Shown here: positions 816 to 64,000 of the stretch, piece by piece
Position numbering within the stretch: position 1 is the stretch's first letter
Layout: every line of letters starts with the position of its first letter
Assembly: GCA_035532215.1 (NCBI GenBank)
Contig: DATKRK010000356.1
Coordinates: forward strand, 1,682 to 65,681
From: Pirellulales bacterium
GTDB taxonomy: Bacteria > Planctomycetota > Planctomycetia > Pirellulales > JAICIG01
Length of the DNA: 64,000 bases
Direction of reading: 5' to 3'
Made by a program: the position numbers and the translations under genes
Notes under the pieces: model-generated
What the model saw: the letters and a program-made list of their open reading frames with translations, nothing else
The model's database searches: none
What the model was told of the DNA's origin: nothing

Positions 816-2465
816 CTATTTCGGCTGGTCAGAGCCGCGTGTTTCAGATTGAGGCGCAGCAGCGGGCGGCTTCGGGCGTTCGCGCGAGTCAACGCCGAAC
901 AGCGTTTCCACGCCCGCGGGCGAAGGAGCTGGCTCGCGTTGCGGCTCATCCTGCGGCTCGTCGCCGACCATCGGCGGTTCGGCTTCTCGCCGGGCCGTTT
1001 TGGCCTTTCGCTCGCGGGCCTCGACAAGCGCCTTGCGCCGGGCGGCGAAATTTTGACGTCGCTGCATCCGAGAAGATAAACGCCGCGGAGGCGGAGGGGG
1101 ATGCAGTACGAGATTCAGTTCCAAGTCGGCACTGGGTGCGCCAAGGATCGGAGGAACGTCGAGTAGCGGGCTCGGTTCTTCCTCATCGACCGCTGGCGCT
1201 GCTTCCGGGCTTTGAGGGGCTGCCAGGTCCGGTTTCCGCCTGGCTGCCGGCGGCAAAGGCGGCGCCCCGCCTTGCGAAACGGTCGGCCGTGGCTCGGCCT
1301 GTGGGCTTGTCCCGTCCTTCTCGGGCGGCGCGTCGGCGCCTTGCGAATTCGCCGGCTCGACGCGGCCTTCAGCTTGGGCGGAAGTTCGAACGCTCGCGGC
1401 GCCTTCGCTCGACGAGACAGTCTGATTTCCAACCGACCCAGGCGCTGCCAGCGGGGCCACGCGATCGGCCAAAGAGCGTTGCCCGGCGAACTCCGGCTCG
1501 ACGATTGCCGGGCGTTCGTCCGGCCCCGCCCTGTGGTCTTCCGTCAGGGCCTGCGTGCTTCTTTGCTCGATCATCGTCCGAGCGATGGAGCGATGCGGCG
1601 CCGCGGCGGGCGAATCGAGCTTGGCTGCGGCGACCAATCCTGCCGGCGCTCGATCCGCGGGCGCTTGCTCTGCCGGCGGCCGATGCGCGGCAAATTGCCA
1701 GCCGGCGAGTGCGCCGATGCCGGTCAAGGCGGCGGCGGCGATTTTGAATTTGCCGGCGGTCGCCAACCGGGCGAAGCCGGTGGGCGCGGCGGCGGCAAGT
1801 TTTTTCGCGGCGGCGGCCTTCAGCAATTCGCCCGCAGCGGGCAGAGCATCGGGCGCCGCCGCCGACGCGACATTTTCGATGAGCGCGGCGAAGACGGCCG
1901 CAGAAAGCACGAAGCCGCGCCGGGCCAGCCGGCTGTGCAACAGCGATCGGCCTCGCTCCAGCCGGCGGCGAATGGTGGCATGGCTCAGCCCTAGCAGTCT
2001 GGCCGCCTCTTGCTGCGTCTTGCCTTCCAAATGGCAGAGCACCAACGGCGACTGAAACTCTTCGGGCAGCGCGGCCAACTCCTGGTCGAGTGCTTTCAGG
2101 ATTTCGGTCTGGCTCGTTCGCTCGCGTTCAGCTTCCAGCCGATTGGCGGCGAAGGTTTGCTCCGTGCGTCGCCGCGACTGCTGTCGGCGGCACGATTCAA
2201 TCGCTTTGTTGAAAGCCACGCGATAGAGCCAGCTTCCGAGCGTTGCGCTGCGCCAACGGCGACGGCTCAGTTTGGGCGCCTTGACGGCCAGCATTACGAA
2301 TGTGGCCTGGCAAGCATCGTCGGCGCCGGCCGGGTCGCCCATCACGCGCTCGCAAATCCCCCGCACCATCGCCCCGTGCCGGCAGACGACGGTCGAAAAC
2401 GCCGCCTCATCCCCTTCGGCCACGAAGCTTTGCAATAGCTCGAAGTCGGTTTTGTCCATCCGCAC
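816..2465 (-). CDS. ECF (sigma-70 family, group 4) RNA polymerase sigma factor with ~350 aa C-terminal extension (TM segments, Ala/Pro-rich)
   Basis: N-terminus has region 2 (DDACQATFVMLAVKA, WLYRVAFNKAIE) and region 4 HTH (LCHLEGKTQQEAARLLGLSHATIRRRLERGRSLL). Hydrophobic stretches and low-complexity P/A-rich sequence follow. Confidence 0.85.
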   Translation of the reverse strand: MRMDKTDFELLQSFVAEGDEAAFSTVVCRHGAMVRGICERVMGDPAGADDACQATFVMLAVKAPKLSRRRWRSATLGSWLYRVAFNKAIESCRRQQSRRRTEQTFAANRLEAERERTSQTEILKALDQELAALPEEFQSPLVLCHLEGKTQQEAARLLGLSHATIRRRLERGRSLLHSRLARRGFVLSAAVFAALIENVASAAAPDALPAAGELLKAAAAKKLAAAAPTGFARLATAGKFKIAAAALTGIGALAGWQFAAHRPPAEQAPADRAPAGLVAAAKLDSPAAAPHRSIARTMIEQRSTQALTEDHRAGPDERPAIVEPEFAGQRSLADRVAPLAAPGSVGNQTVSSSEGAASVRTSAQAEGRVEPANSQGADAPPEKDGTSPQAEPRPTVSQGGAPPLPPAARRKPDLAAPQSPEAAPAVDEEEPSPLLDVPPILGAPSADLELNLVLHPPPPPRRLSSRMQRRQNFAARRKALVEARERKAKTARREAEPPMVGDEPQDEPQREPAPSPAGVETLFGVDSRERPKPPAAAPQSETRGSDQPK

Positions 2466-2933
2466 CGCGCTGCTCCTGAACCTGACGCCAAGTCCCCGTC
2501 GGCTTAGGCAATCATCCTATAGCTAGACGCGCCGCGGGGTCAAATTTGCGCAGTTTTTTTGGATGGCGTGGATGAGGATTACTGGAAAACGAGGAGTAGC
2601 GCCAGACTTGGCCGGTGGGATTGACCGACGAGCCGCTCCGAGGGGCGTGCTATACCTGGCGCGCGGGCGCGCCCAACCGCACTGGCTGGAGGCGCCGACA
2701 AAGCCCGCGGCCGAAGCGATGTAAATTCTCTGGCAGGAAAGCCTTCGATTCGACCTCCAAACTGCGTATCGCAGGAAGGCACGCCATTTGCCGCGGGTGG
2801 CAGTATTGACGAACCTGTTCCCCCTGCCAGGCGGGAACGCGTTCAAGGATTTTGGCTTGGGGCGAAAGACCGCGAATGGAGCGTTTCCCGCGGCGCCCCG
2901 TGCAAAATCACCTGCCAAAAAAGGAGGCGTAAC

Positions 2934-3389
2934 ATGGCCTTTTCGTTGATGCCGCGACGCGCGAGAACATTGCCTCGGCCGTTCGAACGAGTCGTCGAAG
3001 AAATGGAAGATTTGATGGAGCGTTTCTGGGAAGAAGGCGACGGTCGCCGGATGAAGCTGGAGGCATTCCATCCGCGAGTCAATCTGGCGGAAAAGGAGGG
3101 CGGCTTCGAGCTGACCGCCGATCTGCCAGGCATCAAGCCCGAAGACATCAAGGTCGAAATGCAAAACGGCAACTTGATGATTTCGGGCGAGCGCAAGGAA
3201 GAGAAAGAAGAGAAAGGCAAAACGTTCCACCTGGTGGAAAGCAGCTACGGCTCGTTTTACCGCTCGATTCCGCTTCCGACCCCCGTCGAAGAAGGCAAGA
3301 TTGCAGCGAAATTCACCGACGGCGTGCTGCACGTCACGCTGCCGAAGAGCGAGAAGGCAAAGCCCAAGCAGATCGCCGTCAAGAGCTGA
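2934..3389 (+). CDS. Hsp20/alpha-crystallin family small heat-shock protein
   Basis: 151 aa. Alpha-crystallin domain motifs are FELTADLPGIKPEDIKVEMQNGNLMISGERK and GSFYRSIPLP...AKFTDGVLHVTLPK. A strong AGGAGG Shine-Dalgarno precedes the ATG. Confidence 0.95.
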   Translation: MAFSLMPRRARTLPRPFERVVEEMEDLMERFWEEGDGRRMKLEAFHPRVNLAEKEGGFELTADLPGIKPEDIKVEMQNGNLMISGERKEEKEEKGKTFHLVESSYGSFYRSIPLPTPVEEGKIAAKFTDGVLHVTLPKSEKAKPKQIAVKS

Positions 3390-3463
3390 GCGGCGGCTCG
3401 CAGGCTGCCTGGCGTCCGGGCTTGTGCTGTCCGCGGGCGCCCACGAGACCTTGATGGAGCTTT

Positions 3464-3516
3464 GTGGGGCGGCCTTCCAGGCCGTCCATTGCCGACGGCC
3501 TGGAAAGCCGCCCCAC
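3464..3516. repeat. Palindromic repeat family D (GTGGGGCGGCCTTCC...GGAAGGCCGCCCCAC); likely bidirectional terminator between convergent genes
   Basis: A 23-bp stem with one mismatch (3464-3486 / 3494-3516) surrounds a 7-nt loop. A second family member lies at 50295-50349. Both follow stop codons of + strand genes and face a convergent - strand gene. Confidence 0.7.
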
Positions 3517-3603
3517 GACCAAACAAGCACGCCGTCGAGTCGCGGCCGAAAGTTGCGACTCGACGGCGTCTTGCCGTTTCGACGGTTCGAACGGCCCCGC
3601 GAA

Positions 3604-4080: not shown

Positions 4081-4178
4081 GTTGGATGTTCCTTCCTGTT
4101 GTTCGCTGCCTGATCGCCTGCGACGCCGCATGCCGCTGCCACGAGACTCAGCGACGTCGAAATCGCGTTGGGCTCGGC

Positions 4179-4562
4179 TTAGTGGACGTTCATGAGATCG
4201 ATTTGCGGGGTGGGATAGCGATACCAAACCCGCCCCGGAAACCTCGCTCCGCCCCAACGCACCGTGGTCTTGTTCACCGGCAAGCGGTGCGCGCTGTCGT
4301 AGCGGCGGTACGTGCGTTTGTGCGGGTAGAGCATCTCGTGGGGCATCAGCGGCTGGTAGGTGATGTACGTATGCCCGACCAGAGGCGGCGTGGGCCGCGG
4401 GCTGATGTAGAGCTGCGCCGGCGGGCCGCCGTTGGCGCCGGGCACGTAGTAGTTGTAGAACAGATCGGCGGCGTGGGCGGCCTGGCTGCCGGCCCAACCG
4501 AGGGCCAGGGCCATCCCCAGGGCCGCCGCAGCCCATCGTATTGACGTCCGTGTAAACGACAT
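4179..4562 (-). CDS. Secreted hypothetical protein (Tyr/Pro-rich; resembles a planctomycete-conserved family)
   Basis: 127 aa. Signal peptide is MSFTRTSIRWAAAALGMALALGWAGSQAAHA. The mature part reads LFYNYYVPG...QLYISPRPTPPLVGHTYITYQPLMPHEMLYPH. Confidence 0.65.
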   Translation of the reverse strand: MSFTRTSIRWAAAALGMALALGWAGSQAAHAADLFYNYYVPGANGGPPAQLYISPRPTPPLVGHTYITYQPLMPHEMLYPHKRTYRRYDSAHRLPVNKTTVRWGGARFPGRVWYRYPTPQIDLMNVH

Positions 4563-4889
4563 TGATCGCTCCTTGCTGCGCGGGATCTCTGGCTCGGCGA
4601 GGCATGTTTGCCCCTAAAAATGTCTCGGCAAGGGGCGGCGGAACGAGTCAATCTTTATTTACCGGCCGTTGCGATCGTACCCAGTTTGCCGCACGCGTCC
4701 GCCAAAAGCCGCCTGGGAAGGGCTTTCGAAAGACGTTACAATCGGCGCAATCGAAAACTCTTTCGCCGGCCGCCCGGCTCGCCCTCTTTCAGCCCTGCGG
4801 CACGCCTTCGCCGCGTGAATAATATCCACGGGCGAAAGAGCGCCTGGGAACGGACACTCTCGCCACGGAAACGATACGGAGTTCATCTT

Positions 4890-7025
4890 TTGGCAAGCTT
4901 GAAAGACAGGAAGACTTTGACGGACGAAGCTCCGGTCGCCGATGCTTCCGCGAACGGCTCGTCGGAACATTTGGATTCTTCGGCAGAGTCTCATGCCGGC
5001 AACGGCGCCGCGAACGGCAACGGCGCCGCGAACGGCAACGGCGCCGCGGCAGGCGGCGCCGCGAGCCCCCGCCGCCGGGCTACGGCCGAGTCGATGGCCG
5101 CCAGCCAGCGCGATATTTCGGTCAGCGAGTTCTTCGCCAAGAATCGGCACCTGCTCGGCTTCGACAACCCGCGAAAAGCCCTGTTGACCACGATCAAGGA
5201 GGCGGTCGACAATTCGCTCGATGCCTGCGAGGAGGCCGGCATTCTGCCCGAGGTCTGGGTGCATATCGAACAGACCTCGCCGAACCGCTTCAAGGTCGGC
5301 GTGCAGGACAACGGGCCGGGCATTCTCAAGGCGCAAATTCCCAACATCTTCGGCAAGCTGCTCTACGGCTCGAAATTCCACCGGCTGCGAATGAGCCGCG
5401 GCCAGCAGGGCATCGGCATCAGCGCGGCCGGCATGTATGGCGTGCTCACGACCGGCAAGCCGGTGAAGATCATTTCGAAGGTTTCGCCGCGCAAGCCGGC
5501 CCACTACTACGAAATCCAGATCGACACCAAGAAGAACAAGCCCGAGATTCTCAACAATCGGGGGGAAGGCATCGACGTCCCCCCCGGCGAGGCGGGCCGG
5601 AAGGCGATCGAAAAGCACGGCATCGAGTGGATCGAGCAAGACCACGGCACGCGCGTGACCATCGAGTTGGAAGCCCGCTACACGCGCGGCCGCGGCAGCG
5701 TCGATGAGTATCTGGAACAGACGGCGATCGCCAACCCGCACGTCACGATCCGCTACAAGGACCCCGACGGCAACGAAACAAACTACGAGCGGGCCGCCGA
5801 GAAGCTGCCGGCCGAGCCCAAAGAGATCAAGCCGCACCCCTACGGCGTCGAACTGGGCATGCTGCTGACGATGCTCAAAGACACGAAGGCGAGCACGCTT
5901 TCGCAGTTTTTGACGCAGAGCTTTTCGCGCGTCAGCCCGGCCGTCGCCAGCAAGATTTGCGAAACGGCCAAGCTGGGCGTGCGGGCTTCGCCGACGCGGA
6001 TCGGGCGGCACGAGGCCGACTCGCTGTACCAGGCGATCCAGCAAACCAAGATCGGCGCGCCGACCACCGACTGCGTCGTGCCGATCGGCGAAGAACTGCT
6101 GCTCAAGGGCTTGCACAAGGTCGTGCCGGGCGAGTTTTACGTGGCCGCCACGCGTCCGCCGGCCGTGTATCGCGGCAACCCGTTCGTGATCGAGGCGGCG
6201 CTGGCCTATGGCGGCGTCTCGTCGGCCCAAAAGGTCTCGCTCGAAGCGCTCACCGAACTGCTCGGCGAAAGCGACGCCCGCACGCTGCGGCAGTTTCTGA
6301 TCGGCACGTTCAACGGGGTCGGCCCCGACGCGGCGGAGAAAATTCTCACCGAAGCCAACCTGGGGCCGCGCGCCACGCCGGCCAAGTTGAAGGCCGCCGA
6401 GATCGCCAAGCTGCACACGGCGATGCGCTCGGTGAGCCTGGAAGAAGGCCAGACGATGAACGTGCTGCGCTACGCCAACCGCGTGCCCTTGCAGTTCCAG
6501 CAGGGCGCCTGCGCGATCACGCAGACGATCACCAGCACCAACTGGCGGGCCTACGGGCTGAGCCAATCGCGCGGCGGGCTGCCCAGCGGGCCCGTCACGG
6601 TGATGGTCCACATCGCCAGCGTCTGGGTGCCGTTCACCAGCGAATCGAAAGAGGCGGTGGCTTCGTACCCGGAGATTCAAAAGGAACTGCGGCTCGCGCT
6701 GCAGGCGGTCGGACGCAAGTTGAACATGTACTTGCGGCGGCGGCTGAAGGTGAAGCAAGAAGGCGAGCGGCGGAGCCTGTTCCTGCGCTACCTGGGCGAG
6801 GTCGCCGGCGCTGTCAGCGAGATCAACCAGACCGACCGCAAGGCGCTTTACGACCGGCTGATGGACGTCGCCAAACGGAAGACGGCCGAGGCCGACGCCC
6901 GTTTCGACGACCGCGGCCGCAAAGTAGTCGAAGACGAGGAGGAGGATTTCGGCGACAACGTGTTGATCATCAAGCAGCCCGAAGAAGAACCGCCGGCGCC
7001 CGGCGCAGAAGCGAAGCCCGCCTAG
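4890..7025 (+). CDS. top6B: DNA topoisomerase VI subunit B (GHKL ATPase, type IIB topoisomerase)
   Basis: Bergerat-fold motifs are VSEFFAKNRHLLGFDNPRKALLTTIKEAVDNSLDACEEAG, VQDNGPGI and GQQGIGISAA, with a transducer region after them. Start is uncertain: TTG at 4890 has GGAG 8 nt upstream, and a conservative ATG lies at 5094. The ORF is open from 4608. Confidence 0.9.
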   Translation: MASLKDRKTLTDEAPVADASANGSSEHLDSSAESHAGNGAANGNGAANGNGAAAGGAASPRRRATAESMAASQRDISVSEFFAKNRHLLGFDNPRKALLTTIKEAVDNSLDACEEAGILPEVWVHIEQTSPNRFKVGVQDNGPGILKAQIPNIFGKLLYGSKFHRLRMSRGQQGIGISAAGMYGVLTTGKPVKIISKVSPRKPAHYYEIQIDTKKNKPEILNNRGEGIDVPPGEAGRKAIEKHGIEWIEQDHGTRVTIELEARYTRGRGSVDEYLEQTAIANPHVTIRYKDPDGNETNYERAAEKLPAEPKEIKPHPYGVELGMLLTMLKDTKASTLSQFLTQSFSRVSPAVASKICETAKLGVRASPTRIGRHEADSLYQAIQQTKIGAPTTDCVVPIGEELLLKGLHKVVPGEFYVAATRPPAVYRGNPFVIEAALAYGGVSSAQKVSLEALTELLGESDARTLRQFLIGTFNGVGPDAAEKILTEANLGPRATPAKLKAAEIAKLHTAMRSVSLEEGQTMNVLRYANRVPLQFQQGACAITQTITSTNWRAYGLSQSRGGLPSGPVTVMVHIASVWVPFTSESKEAVASYPEIQKELRLALQAVGRKLNMYLRRRLKVKQEGERRSLFLRYLGEVAGAVSEINQTDRKALYDRLMDVAKRKTAEADARFDDRGRKVVEDEEEDFGDNVLIIKQPEEEPPAPGAEAKPA
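4998..5048 (+). repeat. 18-nt in-frame tandem repeat (GGCAACGGCGCCGCGAAC x ~2.8) encoding GNGAAN repeats in the top6B N-terminal extension
   Basis: Direct reading gives units at 4998-5015 and 5016-5033, with a partial third unit. Confidence 0.85.
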
Positions 7026-55820: not shown

Positions 55821-56178
55821 TGCCACCAGCTTTAGAGATCGTCCTGCTTTTTACGCGGCGTTTTCCGCAGTGAATTCCGACCCCGAAGGGGTCAGATTCG
55901 ATAGCCCAGGGCGCAGCCCTGGGAATCCGAACGACGCAACATTGTTCACCCCGACGGGGTGAAACCGGCCGCCGCATCGACCAGTGATTGTAAATTGAGC
56001 AGAGGGCCTTGGGATGAGAACCAACGAGTTACGCCCTTTCAGGGCGGACGCGCCGTTGGTTGGACGAGTCCCCCAGGGCTGCGCCCTGGGCTATCGAATG
56101 ACGCACCTTCGGTGCTACGGCGGCCTTCGGCCTTATCCATCTTTCCAGAAAGCAGGACGATCTCTTTAGCTGGTGGCA
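55821..56178. mobile_element. MITE-like 358-bp element bounded by 30-bp terminal inverted repeats (repeat family F)
   Basis: TGCCACCAGCTTTAGAGATCGTCCTGCTTT (55821-55850) matches the reverse complement of 56149-56178 at 28/30. An inner inverted pair ATTCGATAGCCCAGGGCGCAGCCCTGGG (55897-55924 / 56071-56098) is present. No transposase ORF. Confidence 0.55.
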
Positions 56179-56684: not shown

Positions 56685-57040
56685 TCAGGCATGAAACGCC
56701 CTGTTTTGCGCCGCCGCTATGGCCCCGCGAGGCGCGAACCGCGTGTTTTCTCGGAGAATCTCGCGATGCGGCGCCGATTTGCACGCTTGCACGCGCAGCG
56801 ATATAAATAAATCGGCCGGAATATAAATCACCGTCGCCGTCATCGCGGAGAAAGAAAGCCGCTGGTGAACGGCCAGATACTTTCGCGCCGAGACCAGCAC
56901 CTGCGGATGCTTGCCTTTGATCACTTCGGAGAGGATATCCGTGTCGATCAGCGCCGCATCCATGTCTACGGAAGATCACGCGAAAGGTTAGCCCTGGTTT
57001 TCGCGACCTTATTGATCGCCTCGATCTCTTCCTCGGTCAT
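56685..57040 (-). pseudogene. vapC: Degraded type II toxin-antitoxin pair: truncated PIN-domain VapC plus short antitoxin remnant
   Basis: MDAALIDTDILSEVIKGKHPQVLVSARKYLAVHQRLSFSAMT is a typical VapC N-terminus, but PIN homology is lost after about 47 aa. Fragments resembling the C-terminal region appear in other frames. Upstream, ...MTEEEIEAINKVAKTRANLSRDLP ends 2 nt before the vapC ATG and overlaps the GNAT gene start region. Confidence 0.5.
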
Positions 57041-58323: not shown

Positions 58324-58467
58324 CGACGCCTCGGGTGACATTCAACAATCCTTTAGGCGGCTGTCGCGGACACGCCTCTTCCCAATTCCCATAGCCGTGA
58401 CAAACGGCACGAATCGACCGCGCCATGACGGTGAGGCTCGGGGTAGGGGAGTTTGTGCGCTGAGGAC

Positions 58468-59880
58468 ATGCAGGAAGTGACCAAGGACGATATGGAGATC
58501 GTGTCAGCTTTGCAGATTGCGCTTGCTGATAAGGTCGGTCAGGAGCGGTTCGAGTTGTGGTTCGGCGCGAACACGCGTCTCGAAGTGAGCGACGGCGCCC
58601 TGACGGTCCGCGTGCCCAACCAGTTCTTCCAAGACTGGCTGCGGAAGAACTACCGCCAGCAGATCGAAGCCGCCTGCCAAGAGACGCTCGGCTGGCCGGC
58701 GCCGGTCAACTTCCGCGTCGATCCGTCGCTGGCCGAGGCCGTCGCCGCGGCGGCCTCGCCAGGGCCGCAGGCATCCCAGGTCAAGGATTCGTTGGCCGGG
58801 GTTTCGGCGGCGCCCGCGCCGCCGGCCCCGGCAGGCGCCGCGCGGCGGCGCTTCGCCGCGCTCGATTCGTTCGTGGTCGGTTCGACAAATCGCCTGGCCC
58901 GCGTGGCCGTGCAAACGATGGTCTCGGGGCATGGCGCCACGTCGCCCTTGCTGCTCTATGGTCCGACGGGCGTGGGCAAAACCCACTTGCTCGAGGCTCT
59001 GTGGACCGAAGCCCGCAAGACGCGAGCCGGTTGCCAGGCCGTTTATCTGTCGGCCGAGCAGTTCACCACGCAGTTCCTCGGCGCCTTGCACGGCAGCGGC
59101 TTGCCGAGCTTCCGCAGCAAGCACCGCGGGCTCGATCTGCTGCTGATCGACGACCTCCAATTTCTGGCCGGCAAGCGAGCGACGCTGGTCGAGCTGTTGC
59201 ACACGATCGACGCCTTTGCCCGCGCCGGCCGGCAATTGGCCTTCGCGGCCGACCGCCCGCCGGCGGAACTCGGCGAGTTGGGGCCCGAACTGGTGACGCG
59301 GCTGCAAGGCGGCCTGGTTTGCGGCATCCAACCGCCCGAATACGAAACGCGGCTGGGCATCGTCGGCCGCATGGCGGCGCGTTTCGAGTTGGCCGTGCCC
59401 GGCGACGTGCAAGCTTATGTCGCGGCCCATTTCACTTCGCACGCCCGCGAGTTGGCCGGGGCCTTGAACCGGCTGCACGCCACGAGTTTGGCGCTCGAGC
59501 GGCCGATCACGCTCGAATTGGCCGAGGAGGCCTTGGCCGAAGTGCTCCAACAAAACTCCCGCAGCGTGCGGCTGGCGGATATCGAACAAGCGGTGTGCCA
59601 GGTGTTCGGCCTCGAACCGCAGAGCCTGCAATCGCGGCGAAAGGGCAAGCAAGTCAGTCATCCGCGGATGTTGGCCATGTGGCTGGCCCGCAAGCACACG
59701 CGAGCCGCGCTCAGCGAGATCGGCTGTTACTTCGGCGGCCGCAGCCACACCACGGTGATCTCGGCCCAGAAGAAGATCAACGCCTGGATGGCCGGCCGCG
59801 CCTCGCTCGACGTCAGCCACGGGCAATGCGACGTCGAAGAAGCCGTGCGCCGCATCGAGCAAACGCTGCAAGCGGGGTAG
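58468..59880 (+). CDS. dnaA: Chromosomal replication initiator protein DnaA
   Basis: Domain I is FELWFGANTRLEVSDGALTVRVPNQFFQDWL. The AAA+ module has PLLLYGPTGVGKTHLL, LLLIDDLQFLAGK and box VII. Domain IV is HPRMLAMWLARKHTRAALSEIGCYFGGRSHTTV. Alternative starts are 58453 (TTG) and 58492 (ATG). Confidence 0.93.
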   Translation: MQEVTKDDMEIVSALQIALADKVGQERFELWFGANTRLEVSDGALTVRVPNQFFQDWLRKNYRQQIEAACQETLGWPAPVNFRVDPSLAEAVAAAASPGPQASQVKDSLAGVSAAPAPPAPAGAARRRFAALDSFVVGSTNRLARVAVQTMVSGHGATSPLLLYGPTGVGKTHLLEALWTEARKTRAGCQAVYLSAEQFTTQFLGALHGSGLPSFRSKHRGLDLLLIDDLQFLAGKRATLVELLHTIDAFARAGRQLAFAADRPPAELGELGPELVTRLQGGLVCGIQPPEYETRLGIVGRMAARFELAVPGDVQAYVAAHFTSHARELAGALNRLHATSLALERPITLELAEEALAEVLQQNSRSVRLADIEQAVCQVFGLEPQSLQSRRKGKQVSHPRMLAMWLARKHTRAALSEIGCYFGGRSHTTVISAQKKINAWMAGRASLDVSHGQCDVEEAVRRIEQTLQAG

Positions 59881-59966
59881 GGCCGAAGTTCCGCGCCCAA
59901 GCGGCCCGCCTATCGGGGAGCCGTTGCATCTGAGATAATCGCGCGTTTGAGCCATAGGGACGCGAA

Positions 59967-60494
59967 ATGCCGCCGAATCAAAAGATGCTGTTCGACGCCG
60001 GACCGGCGATCAAGCGCACGCAGCGCAGCGGATCGTTCGTCGACAACATGCAGTTGCCGGTGCATCGCTGGTTCCGCTACTCGGCGGGTTTTTCGGCGGA
60101 GTGGGTCGGCGATTTGATTCGTTCGGCTGCTCGCGGCGGCGGTCGCGTACTCGACCCGTTTGCGGGATCGGGCACGGTGGTTTTAGAGGCCGAACGGGCG
60201 AACGCTTCGAGCATCGGCTTGGAAGCCCACCCATTTCTTGCGCGCCTTGCGCGAGCGAAGCTCGGTTGGCGCGAGGCGCCGGAAGACTTGCGCCGCCGGG
60301 CCAAGCTGATTCTTTCGACGGCCGAGTCGGCCAGCGAGCCGAAGCTTGCCGCATATCCCGCCTTGATGCGCAAGTGTTTTCCCGACGAAACGCTGGGCAA
60401 GCTCGACTATTACGTGACAAATCGTCAGACATCGGGGTTCGCGGGGGCCATCGAGTCCATGGCTCCGCCGCTTCCCATGGCGAATATCAGGTGA
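59967..60494 (+). pseudogene. N-terminal fragment of a DNA methyltransferase (motif I only), apparently truncated
   Basis: LPVHRWFRYSAGFSAEWVGDLI...RVLDPFAGSGTVVLEAERANASSIGLEAHPF carries the SAM-binding motif I (DPFxGSGT). No catalytic (D/N)PPY motif follows. The ORF ends after 175 aa exactly where GC content drops. Confidence 0.65.
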
Positions 60495-60499
60495 CATCC

Positions 60500-61600
60500 A
60501 TGGCGTTGCAAGATGAAATCGCAAAAGAAGCTGCACAAATTCGGACGGATTCCTATCCAATGTCCATCGGTGAATTGCTTAACCTTTATCGTGACGATGA
60601 GTTAGACGTTCACCCCGAATTTCAGAGAGTATTTCGCTGGACGCCAACCCAGAAAACAAAGCTTATCGAGTCCATTCTGCTTGGTATCCCGATGCCGCCA
60701 ATCTTTGTGGCGCAGCAGAAGACTGGCGTCTGGGATGTTGTTGATGGCCAGCAAAGACTGTCAACGATTCTCCAATTTGTGGGCGAGCTAAAAGACGAGA
60801 AGGGCGAGCTAGTGACGCCCCTAGTCCTAGAGAGGACGAAGTTCTTGCCATCGTTGGCAGGAAAGGTCTGGAGCGGCGGAGAGAATGCTTTCACGCGCGA
60901 CCAGCAGCTTTTTGTTAAGCGAGCAAAAATCGACGTAAACATCGTCCTGAAAGAGAGTGACGAGACGACGAAATTTGAGCTATTTATGCGGCTTAACACG
61001 GGCGGAACGCCCCTAATGCCACAGGAAGTTAGAAACTGCCTGATGATTATGGCATTTCGCGATACCTATGTCTGGATAAGGACGCTCGCGGAAGACGCGA
61101 ATTTCTCGAACGCGGTCTCGCTGTCCGAACGGCTTATTACCGAGCAGTACCCCATGGAATTAGTGACTCGTTTCATTATTTTCCGGACCATGGCAAAAGC
61201 GGACCTAGAGCAGGTCGGCGACATCGGCGAGTTCTTGAACAATAACCTCAAATCCCTCCACGAGCTTAACCGGGCACAAAAAGCGGTCGAAGAACGAGCC
61301 TTTCGCGAAACCTTTCAGCTCATTAACCAGCAAATGCAGTCTGACGCATTTCACCGATACGATCCGTTGCAGGATCGATTCCTTGGAAGCTTTTCGATCG
61401 CTGCGTTTGAAACCGTCGCTCTTGGGATTGGCTTTAATACTGACCCAAATGGCGGGTTGAGGCCCATATCTGACTTGCAGAAAAAGGTGAAGGCTGTGCT
61501 CTCCGATCCAACATTTACCGATAATTCCGGCTCCGGAGTGCGAGCGTCAACCAGGATTCCAAGAATTGTTCCGCTCGGGCGCGCGACTTTTGAAAAATGA
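60500..61600 (+). CDS. DUF262 (ParB-like/GmrSD N-terminal) domain protein
   Basis: Internal ATG gives MALQDEIAKEAAQIRTDSYPMSIGELLNLYRDDELDVHPEFQRVFRWTPTQKTKLIESILLGIPMPPIFV...WDVVDGQQRLSTI (DGQQR motif). The C-terminal half has no His-Me/DUF1524 motif. GC is markedly lower than in flanks. Confidence 0.88.
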   Translation: MALQDEIAKEAAQIRTDSYPMSIGELLNLYRDDELDVHPEFQRVFRWTPTQKTKLIESILLGIPMPPIFVAQQKTGVWDVVDGQQRLSTILQFVGELKDEKGELVTPLVLERTKFLPSLAGKVWSGGENAFTRDQQLFVKRAKIDVNIVLKESDETTKFELFMRLNTGGTPLMPQEVRNCLMIMAFRDTYVWIRTLAEDANFSNAVSLSERLITEQYPMELVTRFIIFRTMAKADLEQVGDIGEFLNNNLKSLHELNRAQKAVEERAFRETFQLINQQMQSDAFHRYDPLQDRFLGSFSIAAFETVALGIGFNTDPNGGLRPISDLQKKVKAVLSDPTFTDNSGSGVRASTRIPRIVPLGRATFEK

Positions 61601-62274
61601 CAAAGCTGCGCACGCTATCCGACCTGAATGACGCCATGGCGGCCGACTTTGCTTGGCGCAAAAAGGAGCTTCACAGCATCAAATCCGCCGTCTTTGACAA
61701 TGAGAAGACGGCCAAGCGCGACACCTATATACGTGCCGCCATGGCGATGCTCTATGCACACTGGGAGGGGTTTATTAGAAACGCGGGAACGATGTATTTG
61801 AACTTTGTCGCCCACCAAAGGCTCCGAAACAACGAGCTTTCCCGTGCCATGCTTGCCCTATCAGCGGGTCGGGTTATCGAGGAAGCCGTGGCTGGCGGCA
61901 AGTCGGCGGCCAGAATGCGCGTCGTGGACTTCTTTGCTGGACAGATGGCGGACCGTTGCAAGATCAACCATCAACGATCAATCAATACCAGGTCGAATCT
62001 CTCGTCAACGGTTCTGCGAGAGATTGTCGAAACCATGGGCTTGGATTACCGCTCGTTTGAAAGCAGGGAGAAGCTCATAGACGAGAAGCTGTTGAAGAAC
62101 CGCAATCACATCGCCCACGGGCATTATTTGACGGTTACTGTGACCGAATATGAGCAAATCCACAGCACCATTTTCAGCATGATGCAGGAATTCTCCGACC
62201 AAGTATACGTCGCTGCCAGTTCCGGGGCATTTAAGGCAGCTCCCATGGCAGAATTTCCAGCAACAACGCTTTAG
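61597..62274 (+). CDS. HEPN-like nuclease (Rx4H motif), recalls the MAE_28990/MAE_18760 / RiboL-PSP-type HEPN family
   Basis: 225 aa with a 4-nt ATGA overlap with the DUF262 gene. Motifs are MLYAHWEGFIRNAG and the HEPN signature KNRNHIAHGHY. GC is low. Confidence 0.8.
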   Translation: MTKLRTLSDLNDAMAADFAWRKKELHSIKSAVFDNEKTAKRDTYIRAAMAMLYAHWEGFIRNAGTMYLNFVAHQRLRNNELSRAMLALSAGRVIEEAVAGGKSAARMRVVDFFAGQMADRCKINHQRSINTRSNLSSTVLREIVETMGLDYRSFESREKLIDEKLLKNRNHIAHGHYLTVTVTEYEQIHSTIFSMMQEFSDQVYVAASSGAFKAAPMAEFPATTL

Positions 62275-62447
62275 CCCACTACCTCGCGTGCCGCGATTAG
62301 ACAAACATCGATGAGTCTGAGATAATAGGCGGCTTCAATCCTTGCGACTTTCACGAGAAAGCCGCCGCGATCGATTTCCTGCGCGCGATGAGTTGAAAGC
62401 TCCATTGAATCGGCGCATTTAGAATGACCTGCGAGACGCAGCAGCCT

Positions 62448-63749
62448 TCACGCGAACTGCGTGATCCCCGGCATCGCGACCGGCGCGACGGCCAAGGGAC
62501 CAAACTCGTACTTGGCGGGCGAGAGATCTTCCTTTGAGTTCAGCGCCTGCTCCCAGGTGATCGTCTGGCCGGTGTAGGTGGCCATGCGGCCGAGGATGGC
62601 CAGCATCGTGCTGCGGCACATGTACTGGCTGTTGTCGATCGCCTTGCCCGAGCGGATGCTGGCGAACAACTCGTCGTGCTCGACTTGGTACATGTTCGGC
62701 TTCTCGCCGCGGTAGCTCCATTTCGATTCGCCCTGAATCTTGTGGTGCATCACGTCGGCCGTGCCCTTCGTGCCCATCACGTAATCCGACACGTCGACGC
62801 TGCAACCGGCCTGTTGCCGCGTGTAGGCGAACAGCTTGACGCCGCTGGCGTATTCGTAGACCACGGCGTGGTGATCGAAAATCTGCCCGAACTCCGCCTG
62901 CACGCGCACCTGCCGCCCGCCCAGGCCGTAGGCTTTGACCGGCGGCTCGTCCTTCATCGCCCAGGCGGCCTTGTCGAGGCTGTGGACGTGCTGCTCGACG
63001 TTGTGGTCGCCCGACAGCCAGGTGAAATAGAGCCAGTTGCGCAACTGCCATTCCATGTCGCTCCACTCGGGCTTGCGCGGGTGCATCCAGAGCGTGCCGG
63101 TGTTGTAGTTGACGTTGATGGCCACGATCTCGCCGACCGCGCCGTCGTGAATGCGCTGCATCGTCTCGCGCTTCGGCAAATCGTAGCGGTAGCACAGCCC
63201 GGAAACGACCGAGAGGCCTTTCTGCTTGGCTTCTTCGGCGGTGGCCAGCACGCTGCGCACGCCGGGAGCGTCGACGGCCACCGGCTTCTCGACGAACACG
63301 TGCTTGCCGGCCGCGATCGCCGCGCGGAAGTGCTCGGGGCGGAAATGGGGCGGCGTGCAGAGCAGCACGACGTCGACGCCGCTGTCGATCACCTTCTGAT
63401 AGGCATCGAAGCCCGTAAAGCAGTTTTCTTTGGTCACTTCGACCTTGCCGGCCGGCGCTTGCTGCTTCAGATTCGCCAGGCTGCCGATCAGGCGGTCTTC
63501 GAAGGCGTCGCCCATCGCCACGAGCTTGACGTTCTGGTCGGCGTTCAAGGCCTGCGCCGCGGCGCCCGTGCCGCGACCGCCACAGCCAACCAGGCCGATC
63601 TTCAGCACGTCGCTGCCGGCCGCATGGACGCTTTGCGAGAGTGCCAAGCCGCCGAGCAAACTGCCGCCCGCTGCGACCGCCGTCGAAGTTTTGAGGAATT
63701 CGCGTCGCGACGGGACGCAAGGCTGCGAAGGGCGGGCCGAATCGGTCAT
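62448..63749 (-). CDS. Gfo/Idh/MocA family oxidoreductase with twin-arginine signal
   Basis: Internal ATG gives MTDSARPSQPCVPSRREFLKTSTAVAAGGSL (Tat). The Rossmann motif is IGLVGCGGRGTGA, followed by EKPVAVD. The ORF is open to 63794. Confidence 0.9.
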   Translation of the reverse strand: MTDSARPSQPCVPSRREFLKTSTAVAAGGSLLGGLALSQSVHAAGSDVLKIGLVGCGGRGTGAAAQALNADQNVKLVAMGDAFEDRLIGSLANLKQQAPAGKVEVTKENCFTGFDAYQKVIDSGVDVVLLCTPPHFRPEHFRAAIAAGKHVFVEKPVAVDAPGVRSVLATAEEAKQKGLSVVSGLCYRYDLPKRETMQRIHDGAVGEIVAINVNYNTGTLWMHPRKPEWSDMEWQLRNWLYFTWLSGDHNVEQHVHSLDKAAWAMKDEPPVKAYGLGGRQVRVQAEFGQIFDHHAVVYEYASGVKLFAYTRQQAGCSVDVSDYVMGTKGTADVMHHKIQGESKWSYRGEKPNMYQVEHDELFASIRSGKAIDNSQYMCRSTMLAILGRMATYTGQTITWEQALNSKEDLSPAKYEFGPLAVAPVAMPGITQFA

Positions 63750-64000
63750 GGCAGACTCCTTGAAAACGACTCTTGGGGCGGGCTGGGCGGGCAAGAATGC
63801 AAGCGTTTACTATAACATCGCCGCCCGGGGCAAGCGAACCGTTTGGCAGCGGCGGCAAGGATTCCAACGGCGCCGGCGAAACCGCCCCATCGAAAGAAAC
63901 CGCCGCAACTCGCGCGGAAATACGTGGCCAGCGAGTTGCCAGCGGGTACAATCCAGGCGGCCTCGTGGCCAACGGCCTTAAGTTGGAAGACGCGGTGAAA

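Follow-up and report, generated by a model that had tools for sequence, protein, structure and literature searches.

What is the pair of overlapping genes, low in guanine-cytosine (GC) content, that lies between dnaA and an oxidoreductase gene in a 64-kb stretch of Pirellulales DNA (contig DATKRK010000356.1; the whole stretch is called the window here), does it belong to a known system, and how did it reach this site? The first gene encodes a DUF262 protein and the second a HEPN protein. A reading made from the sequence only had taken the two for a compact, horizontally acquired anti-phage cassette inserted immediately downstream of dnaA and assignable to no named system, and this interpretation as a whole is partly supported by our analysis. 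We consider it likely that the locus houses a module of defence type, complete in its two genes and of the 'DUF262 + HEPN' kind, and that the history of the site is the replacement of a restriction-modification (R-M) system. The architecture is already known, both from the validated system PD-T4-2 and from a HEPN-ParB operon catalogued in 2013, and the window pair is an ordinary member of a widespread module.

The listed open reading frame (ORF) of the DUF262 protein begins at GTG 60101; its homologues begin at ATG 60500, and the coding sequence runs from this ATG to the stop at 61600. GmrSD_N (E = 6.7e-27) is the only Pfam match of the protein at E <= 0.1, and neither DUF1524 nor another nuclease domain is matched at that threshold, which agrees with the earlier description of a DUF262 protein that carries DGQQR and lacks the DUF1524/His-Me half. 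The motifs QRvfRW, DGQQR and FmrLN (nucleoside triphosphatase, NTPase, motifs I-III) are invariant in 113 homologues. An AlphaFold 2 (AF2) model (predicted local distance difference test, pLDDT, 91) resembles ParB in its N-terminal domain and is helical in its C-terminal one; its top PDB match is BrxU (7P9K, E = 1.3e-4), and the next ones are the ParB, PadC, KorB and Noc CTPases, which are non-significant (E from 0.011 to ~0.7). Among the PADLOC models, NsnA fits best (8.8e-61, model positions 34-323 of 385), PD-T4-2_A (PDLC04027) matches with 2.4e-31 (positions 40-339 of 363), and the SspE and HEC-05/06 models cover just the short DUF262 core. The C-terminal tail of the protein, SGSGVRASxRIPKIVPLGR (residues 343-361, 61526-61582), is strongly conserved, with G346, R348 and R352 invariant, and may be a contact for the HEPN protein or for DNA.

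The start codon of the HEPN gene overlaps the stop codon of the DUF262 gene (ATGA, 61597-61600), and its 225-aa product is above the gathering score of both HEPN families that had been named for a profile search, i.e., HEPN_RiboL-PSP (PF18735; 1.4e-32, 113.6 bits, cut-off 28.4) and HEPN_MAE_28990 (PF18737; 3.4e-32, 112.8 bits, cut-off 26.8). The coupled HEPN protein with RNHIAH that had been read from the letters is thereby confirmed, and the name given to it by NCBI, for a Pirellulales metagenome-assembled genome, is 'MAE_28990/MAE_18760 family HEPN-like nuclease'. Its Rx4H motif spans R169-H174, and R169, N170, H174 and G175 (RNHIAHG) do not vary among 120 homologues, nor do W20, R21, E24, R46 and YAHWEG at residues 53-58. 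The AF2 model is all-alpha (pLDDT 94). The PADLOC search that had been suggested for this locus was thus productive for one half of the pair, the DUF262 protein with its matches to NsnA and PD-T4-2_A, but the HEPN protein was without any model match.

Relatives were sought in one genome per species across 185,579 species genomes, and at least 552 were found; the locus counts given here rest on the best 80 of them (L013-L092), which have 46-68% identity. These 80 are distributed over more than 10 phyla, archaea included: Planctomycetota, Acidobacteriota, Cyanobacteria, Chloroflexota, Bacteroidota, Proteobacteria, Verrucomicrobiota, Actinobacteriota, Chlorobi and two anaerobic methanotrophic (ANME) archaea are among them. 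The HEPN gene is directly 3' of the DUF262 gene and on the same strand in all 80 loci, both genes are intact in 76, the 4-nt overlap is present in 55, and no third gene, a methylase included, recurs beside the pair. On plasmids (72,556 searched), the seven DUF262 matches of at least 37% identity are the same seven that carry HEPN matches, each adjacent, with Bacillus, Psychrobacter, Enterobacter, Corynebacterium and Leptospira as hosts. The co-occurrence of this DUF262 clade with HEPN neighbours, proposed for examination in the sequence-only reading, therefore extends to 80 of 80 genomes and 7 of 7 plasmids, and the conserved pairing with no third gene bears out the picture of a compact two-gene module in which a separate HEPN protein stands in place of the usual nuclease. 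The pairwise identities of the two proteins are also correlated (r = 0.84; none of 999 Mantel permutations was as high). Beyond the genomes, the hit lists of both proteins share contigs, the pair was present in all six metagenome places fetched and on ~40 predicted viral contigs (IMG/VR), and a search of 1.84 billion representatives with the HEPN profile gave 2,142 clusters at E <= 1e-10.

The HEPN gene is broken in three of the 80 loci, where a frameshift or an insertion lies in its 5' part. In L028 (6201-8689), this part is split by two tandem IS630-type elements, and in L039 (~4130-6031) by an insert of ~2 kb. On the Bacillus cereus plasmid the pair adjoins a BsuBI/PstI restriction endonuclease (REase), and its scattered defence neighbours elsewhere are of the Type III REase, Hma, BrxH, Drm, Dpd and AriA/OLD types. 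A window-type pair spans the origin of a 5.7-kb Enterobacter plasmid (CP056768.1) and is almost its sole cargo.

The view that no named system could be assigned did not hold. Vassallo et al. 2022 (Table S1) enter PD-T4-2 as 'DUF262, HEPN', two coding sequences in 1,540 bp from E. coli ECOR65; the system was validated against T4, its deletion from native ECOR65 restores T4 plaquing, and PD-T4-2B has an HHpred match to PF18735 of 97.8% (Vassallo et al. 2022). The same family is given for PD-T4-2 in PMC10952713, and the operon link of MAE_28990/RiboL-PSP HEPN genes with ParB/DUF262 was tabulated by Anantharaman et al. 2013. On the evidence of its domains, the window pair has the 'DUF262, HEPN' architecture of PD-T4-2 and belongs to the MAE_28990/RiboL-PSP HEPN-ParB operon family. 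With PD-T4-2 it shares two adjacent, co-oriented genes and no further component, a DUF262 protein of ~365 aa without DUF1524 being followed by a small PF18735 HEPN protein; the window DUF262 protein fits the PD-T4-2_A profile, although NsnA scores higher, and the window HEPN protein has 225 aa, whereas the PD-T4-2_B model has 168 positions. With the operons of 2013 it shares Pfam scores above gathering, the retained Rx4-6H motif and the ParB/DUF262 operon partner; the 2013 table adds DNA methylase genes, whereas the 80 loci have no conserved methylase neighbour. For this reason a three-gene methylase-ParB-HEPN operon was rejected for the window; in addition, the methyltransferase (MTase) stub upstream of the pair is contiguous and homologous with the R-M system of a related contig (L095) and has host-like GC.

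Other systems with a DUF262 component fit less well. Menshen (NsnABC) was suggested by the top PADLOC match, NsnA, and has in common with the window pair the NsnA-type ParB-DUF262 protein with a helical DNA-binding domain and an effector predicted to be an RNase, but the window has a single HEPN protein instead of the ABC-ATPase NsnB (AAA_15/DUF3696) and the inPIN-type NsnC. No ORF for NsnB exists from 61600 to the oxidoreductase gene and none is a conserved neighbour in the 80 loci, the downstream protein is a single-domain HEPN without an NsnC match, and Menshen was rejected on account of the lack of NsnB and NsnC in the window and in the 80 related loci. The GmrSD/BrxU/SspE enzymes share the DUF262 NTPase domain with DGQQR, and BrxU is the best structural match; since the window protein has no fused DUF1524 His-Me nuclease and its effector is a separate HEPN protein, membership in this group was excluded. 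Dazbog (DzbAB) is likewise a two-gene system with a DUF262 domain and without DUF1524, but no Dzb model is among the PADLOC matches of either window protein or of the B. cereus homologues.

The cassette had been placed at 59967 onwards, immediately downstream of dnaA, and this requires correction, as 59967-60494 is the relic of an MTase gene lying between dnaA and the cassette, which starts at 60409 inside the remnant of an R-M module. The relic ORF matches the PADLOC model MTase_II (PDLC03306; 9.3e-36) at model positions 11-136 of 422 only and Pfam N6_N4_Mtase (1.5e-9), it contains the S-adenosylmethionine (SAM) motif DPFAGSGT, and its GC of 64% is host-like. Homology to intact MTases (tblastn/blastn) stops at 60407/60408, the last 28 codons of the relic ORF run into cassette DNA as far as a TGA at 60492-60494, 5 nt before the DUF262 start, and the C-terminal MTase part was not found anywhere in the 64-kb window. 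Related contigs (L093-L097) were obtained from a metagenome scan with DnaA; the window DnaA is 76-80% identical to that of L093-L095 (L094 and L095 each 76%). In L094, L096 and L097 the site is empty, with dnaA followed directly by the convergent oxidoreductase gene. In L095 the same site (1411-3594) is occupied by an intact R-M system, made up of an MTase of 433 aa (PDLC03306, 3.9e-144) and an REase of 290 aa (PDLC03525, 4.9e-72). The window oxidoreductase is 88-91% identical to the gene abutting dnaA in L094 and to the gene 3' of the R-M system in L095.

The window aligns to L095 from dnaA through MTase codon 147 (60408) and again from 62344 into the oxidoreductase gene; 62344-62386 is 81% identical to L095 3542-3584 by blastn, and the relic translation DFHEKAAAIDFLRAMS matches the C-terminus ...DFTDKAAAITFLRAMT of the 290-aa REase ORF. 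Of a complete type II MTase and REase, nothing is left but codons 1-147 of the former and the last 16 codons of the latter. Because the L095 homology stops at 60408 and resumes at 62344, comparison of the two loci shows that a 1,935-bp segment (60409-62343) has taken the place of the inner part of a type II R-M module. Across the related contigs, the stretch from dnaA to the oxidoreductase gene is shown to be variable, being empty, occupied by an intact R-M system or, in the window, overwritten. Transcription of the pair probably starts at the former R-M promoter, with the MTase stub as the first cistron and DUF262 and HEPN as the second and third, given that only 5 nt separate the stop of the stub ORF from the DUF262 start; the promoter-like region at 59903-59939 is the probable driver of this relic-DUF262-HEPN operon.

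Two promoter-like copies are present on the forward strand, GATTAGACA-N17-GATAAT at 62293-62326 and a copy with TGAGATAAT at 59903-59939, and both resemble the promoter region of the L095 MTase. The right copy was scored by the promoter scan as TAGACA-17-GATAAT (62298-62326; 10/12 with TG), and it faces only the REase relic and the convergent oxidoreductase gene. Campbell-type integration followed by a deletion could account for this duplication. The 11-nt repeat TCTGAGATAAT, which flanks the block of relic and cassette, was considered as an attachment site or target-site duplication and rejected, as it coincides with the promoter-like sequences that are also in L095 and is absent from the empty sites.

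The nearest homologues of the MTase relic are themselves disrupted (L010 5001-6284, L011 5001-6293 and L012 5001-6300), their reading frames being interrupted by a TGA in place of the conserved Trp165, by a TAG at codon 220 and by a frameshift close to codon 243. Each has an ORF on its 3' side, which in L010 is of the REase_II type (PDLC03541, 5.8e-76), in L011 is 73% identical to the L010 ORF and in L012 is ~30% identical. Systematic splitting of such MTase genes, suggested by the top 120 homologues all being short, was rejected, since the same search missed the intact, 81%-identical MTase of L095 and the short-only list is probably a search bias.

The compositional dip described by the sequence-only reading (near 50% GC against the mid-60s) is real. 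The segment 60409-62400 has a GC of 51.8%, the lowest of the entire 64 kb, against a mean of 63.5% for the other segments of 1,992 nt (sd 1.9, minimum 58.8; z = -6.2), and the GC at third codon positions is 0.58 in the DUF262 gene and 0.66 in the HEPN gene, compared with 0.84-0.88 in dnaA and the oxidoreductase gene. The offset here is -11.7 points. In all 78 other genomes the GC of the pair is also below that of its flanks, by 11 points on average, and it correlates with host GC (r = 0.895); the DUF262-HEPN pair thus has a family-wide compositional offset. As the dip is the norm of the family, it is on its own no proof of recent transfer. Of the proposed horizontal acquisition, the foreign origin stands, being indicated by relatives in which the site is empty or occupied by R-M genes, but the dip is weak evidence for a recent event, and transfer at this locus is supported by the comparative locus data rather than by composition.

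We hypothesize that the DUF262 protein, a ParB-fold NTPase with intact QRxxxW, DGQQR and FxxxN motifs and an NsnA-like helical DNA-binding domain, would sense invading DNA and that its NTP-dependent switching would license the co-translated HEPN partner. The HEPN protein would then dimerise to give the Rx4H RNase site, RNA would be cut, and phage growth would be stopped, probably at the cost of the infected cell (abortive infection). The same genes could be read as a toxin-antitoxin or addiction module, in which a toxic HEPN RNase is curbed by the DUF262 protein and plasmids or islands are stabilised instead of phage being sensed. HEPN-MNT and HEPN-ParA/Soj dyads were so read by Anantharaman et al. 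2013, the tight 4-nt overlap suggests a fixed stoichiometry, and the pair is nearly the sole cargo of the small Enterobacter plasmid, as a related pair is on a 3.9-kb E. coli plasmid. All NTPase motifs are kept in the DUF262 protein, however, which would be needless for a simple antitoxin, and PD-T4-2 protects its native host against T4. In L034 and on a Leptospira noguchii plasmid the HEPN gene is intact and the DUF262 gene has an in-frame stop, which should be lethal if DUF262 were the antitoxin and argues weakly against this reading, although a sequencing error is possible. We regard an addiction module as improbable, and slightly less probable again is restriction of a type IV-like, DNA-targeting kind, where the ParB-fold DUF262 protein would nick or cut foreign, possibly modified DNA and the HEPN protein would have an accessory role or serve as an abortive back-up. 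The label 'ParB nuclease' given to the partner by Anantharaman et al. 2013, the type IV enzyme BrxU as best structural match and the cassette having taken the place of an R-M system speak for such cutting. It is opposed by the failure to detect a His-Me/DUF1524 or any other nuclease domain in the DUF262 protein, by the division of labour in GmrSD, BrxU and SspE, where the DUF262 half is the NTPase and sensor and DUF1524 does the cutting, and by the HEPN protein being an invariant partner with a perfectly conserved Rx4H site.

Several results weigh against our reading of the locus as a two-gene defence module akin to PD-T4-2. The PD-T4-2_B model (PDLC04028) has no match at E <= 10 to the window HEPN protein or to six of its homologues. 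An E. coli plasmid, pLR-27_3 (L009; 3,948 bp), has as its main cargo (52-1755) a DUF262 + HEPN pair nearer to PD-T4-2 (A 4e-50, B 4e-4), which served as a partial stand-in for the true PD-T4-2 proteins: the two DUF262 proteins are 25% identical, and the window HEPN profile aligned to the L009 HEPN protein with an hhalign probability of 24% and only at the catalytic motif RNxxAHG. The homology of the effector halves thus rests on shared Pfam membership, and by these comparisons the window pair is a clade separate from PD-T4-2, which the PADLOC rules would not call PD-T4-2. In the PDB, phmmer gave nothing usable for either protein, i.e., no solved relative by sequence, and Foldseek gave no significant fold match for the HEPN model, with HEPN toxins appearing only at E > 2, so this HEPN family is without a solved representative. 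Within the literature searched, no mechanism of PD-T4-2 is published, which is why the proposed chain from sensor to RNase is modelled on GmrSD/BrxU/SspE and on HEPN systems at large.

The gene neighbourhoods point the same way, as the neighbours of the pair in other genomes are mostly housekeeping genes, and in Nostocales (L025, L027, L030, L035, L036, L041, L047 and L048) the pair is syntenic just downstream of pheS. The pair is therefore not always in a defence island, and the synteny suggests vertical retention within the order. Together with the GC offset that is family-wide and follows host GC, these neighbourhoods could indicate a housekeeping or regulatory gene pair of intrinsically low GC, whose presence here would be incidental. 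We consider this the least probable of the alternatives and very unlikely, since the pair has a patchy distribution over more than 10 phyla, with bacterial and archaeal homologues at 46-68% identity, is carried on plasmids and viral contigs, differs in presence at the very same site between closely related genomes and has the architecture of a validated system. Returning to the defence module, we tentatively propose, as a plausible idea that we would not yet favour, that the pair is a distinct defence family missed by current sets of hidden Markov models, a 'minimal Menshen' in which an NsnA-type DUF262 sensor would switch on a HEPN RNase of 215-225 aa directly, without an ABC-ATPase transducer.

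The features of the site are collected in Table 1. Outside it, a match to the Rfam family Acido-Lenti-1, a small RNA, is present ~2.3 kb upstream of dnaA at 56072-56116 (+; 49.2 bits, gathering 37, E = 4.4e-8). At 56685-57040 (-) there are a short ORF (MTEEEIEAINKVAKTRANLSRDLP) and, after it, one of 92 aa that begins with MDAALIDTDILSEVIKGK, and neither has a Pfam match at E <= 0.01; judging by VapC N-termini, the two look like a decayed VapBC-type toxin-antitoxin pair.

Table 1. Features from dnaA to the oxidoreductase gene, in window positions
Feature	Position	Strand	Evidence
dnaA; left border of the variable site	58453..59880	+	Pfam Bac_DnaA 6.4e-40, Bac_DnaA_C 5.1e-22, DnaA_N 4.9e-12
Promoter-like region 5' of the MTase relic; extended -10 TGAGATAAT at 59931-59939	59903..59939	+	Aligns to the L095 dnaA-MTase intergenic region
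Relic ORF, 175 aa; codons 1-147 correspond to a type II MTase N-terminus	59967..60494	+	PADLOC, Pfam, tblastn/blastn
Left junction 60408/60409 and 91-nt cassette leader; AGGTGA 6 nt 5' of the ATG	60409..60499	+	End of L095 homology, start of GC fall
DUF262/ParB-type NTPase, 366 aa, helical C-terminal ParBDB-like domain; predicted sensor	60500..61600	+	Pfam, PADLOC, AF2
HEPN protein, MAE_28990/RiboL-PSP family, 225 aa; predicted RNase effector	61597..62274	+	Pfam, conserved residues, AF2
Cassette 3' tail with second promoter-like element; right junction near 62343/62344	62275..62343	+	Promoter scan
REase gene relic: last 16 codons and stop (DFHEKAAAIDFLRAMS*)	62344..62396	+	blastn, translation
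TAT-signal GFO/IDH/MocA oxidoreductase; right border of the variable site	62448..63794	-	Pfam GFO_IDH_MocA 5.8e-14, TAT_signal

The HEPN half is without a PADLOC model, and loci of a large and strictly paired clade consequently go unannotated; such a model would be easy to add. Given the GC deficit of ~11 points in every genome examined, a drop in GC should not be taken to prove that a transfer was recent. In related Pirellulales, a single chromosomal site exists in three states, with junctions mapped within a few bases, and is a clean natural example of the turnover of defence systems at a hotspot. If the proposal of a distinct family is true, the family, with at least 552 species genomes out of 185,579 and ~2,100 HEPN clusters, would represent a sizeable unannotated arm of prokaryotic immunity, and the R-M replacement would exemplify how one immune system is displaced by another at a fixed position beside dnaA.

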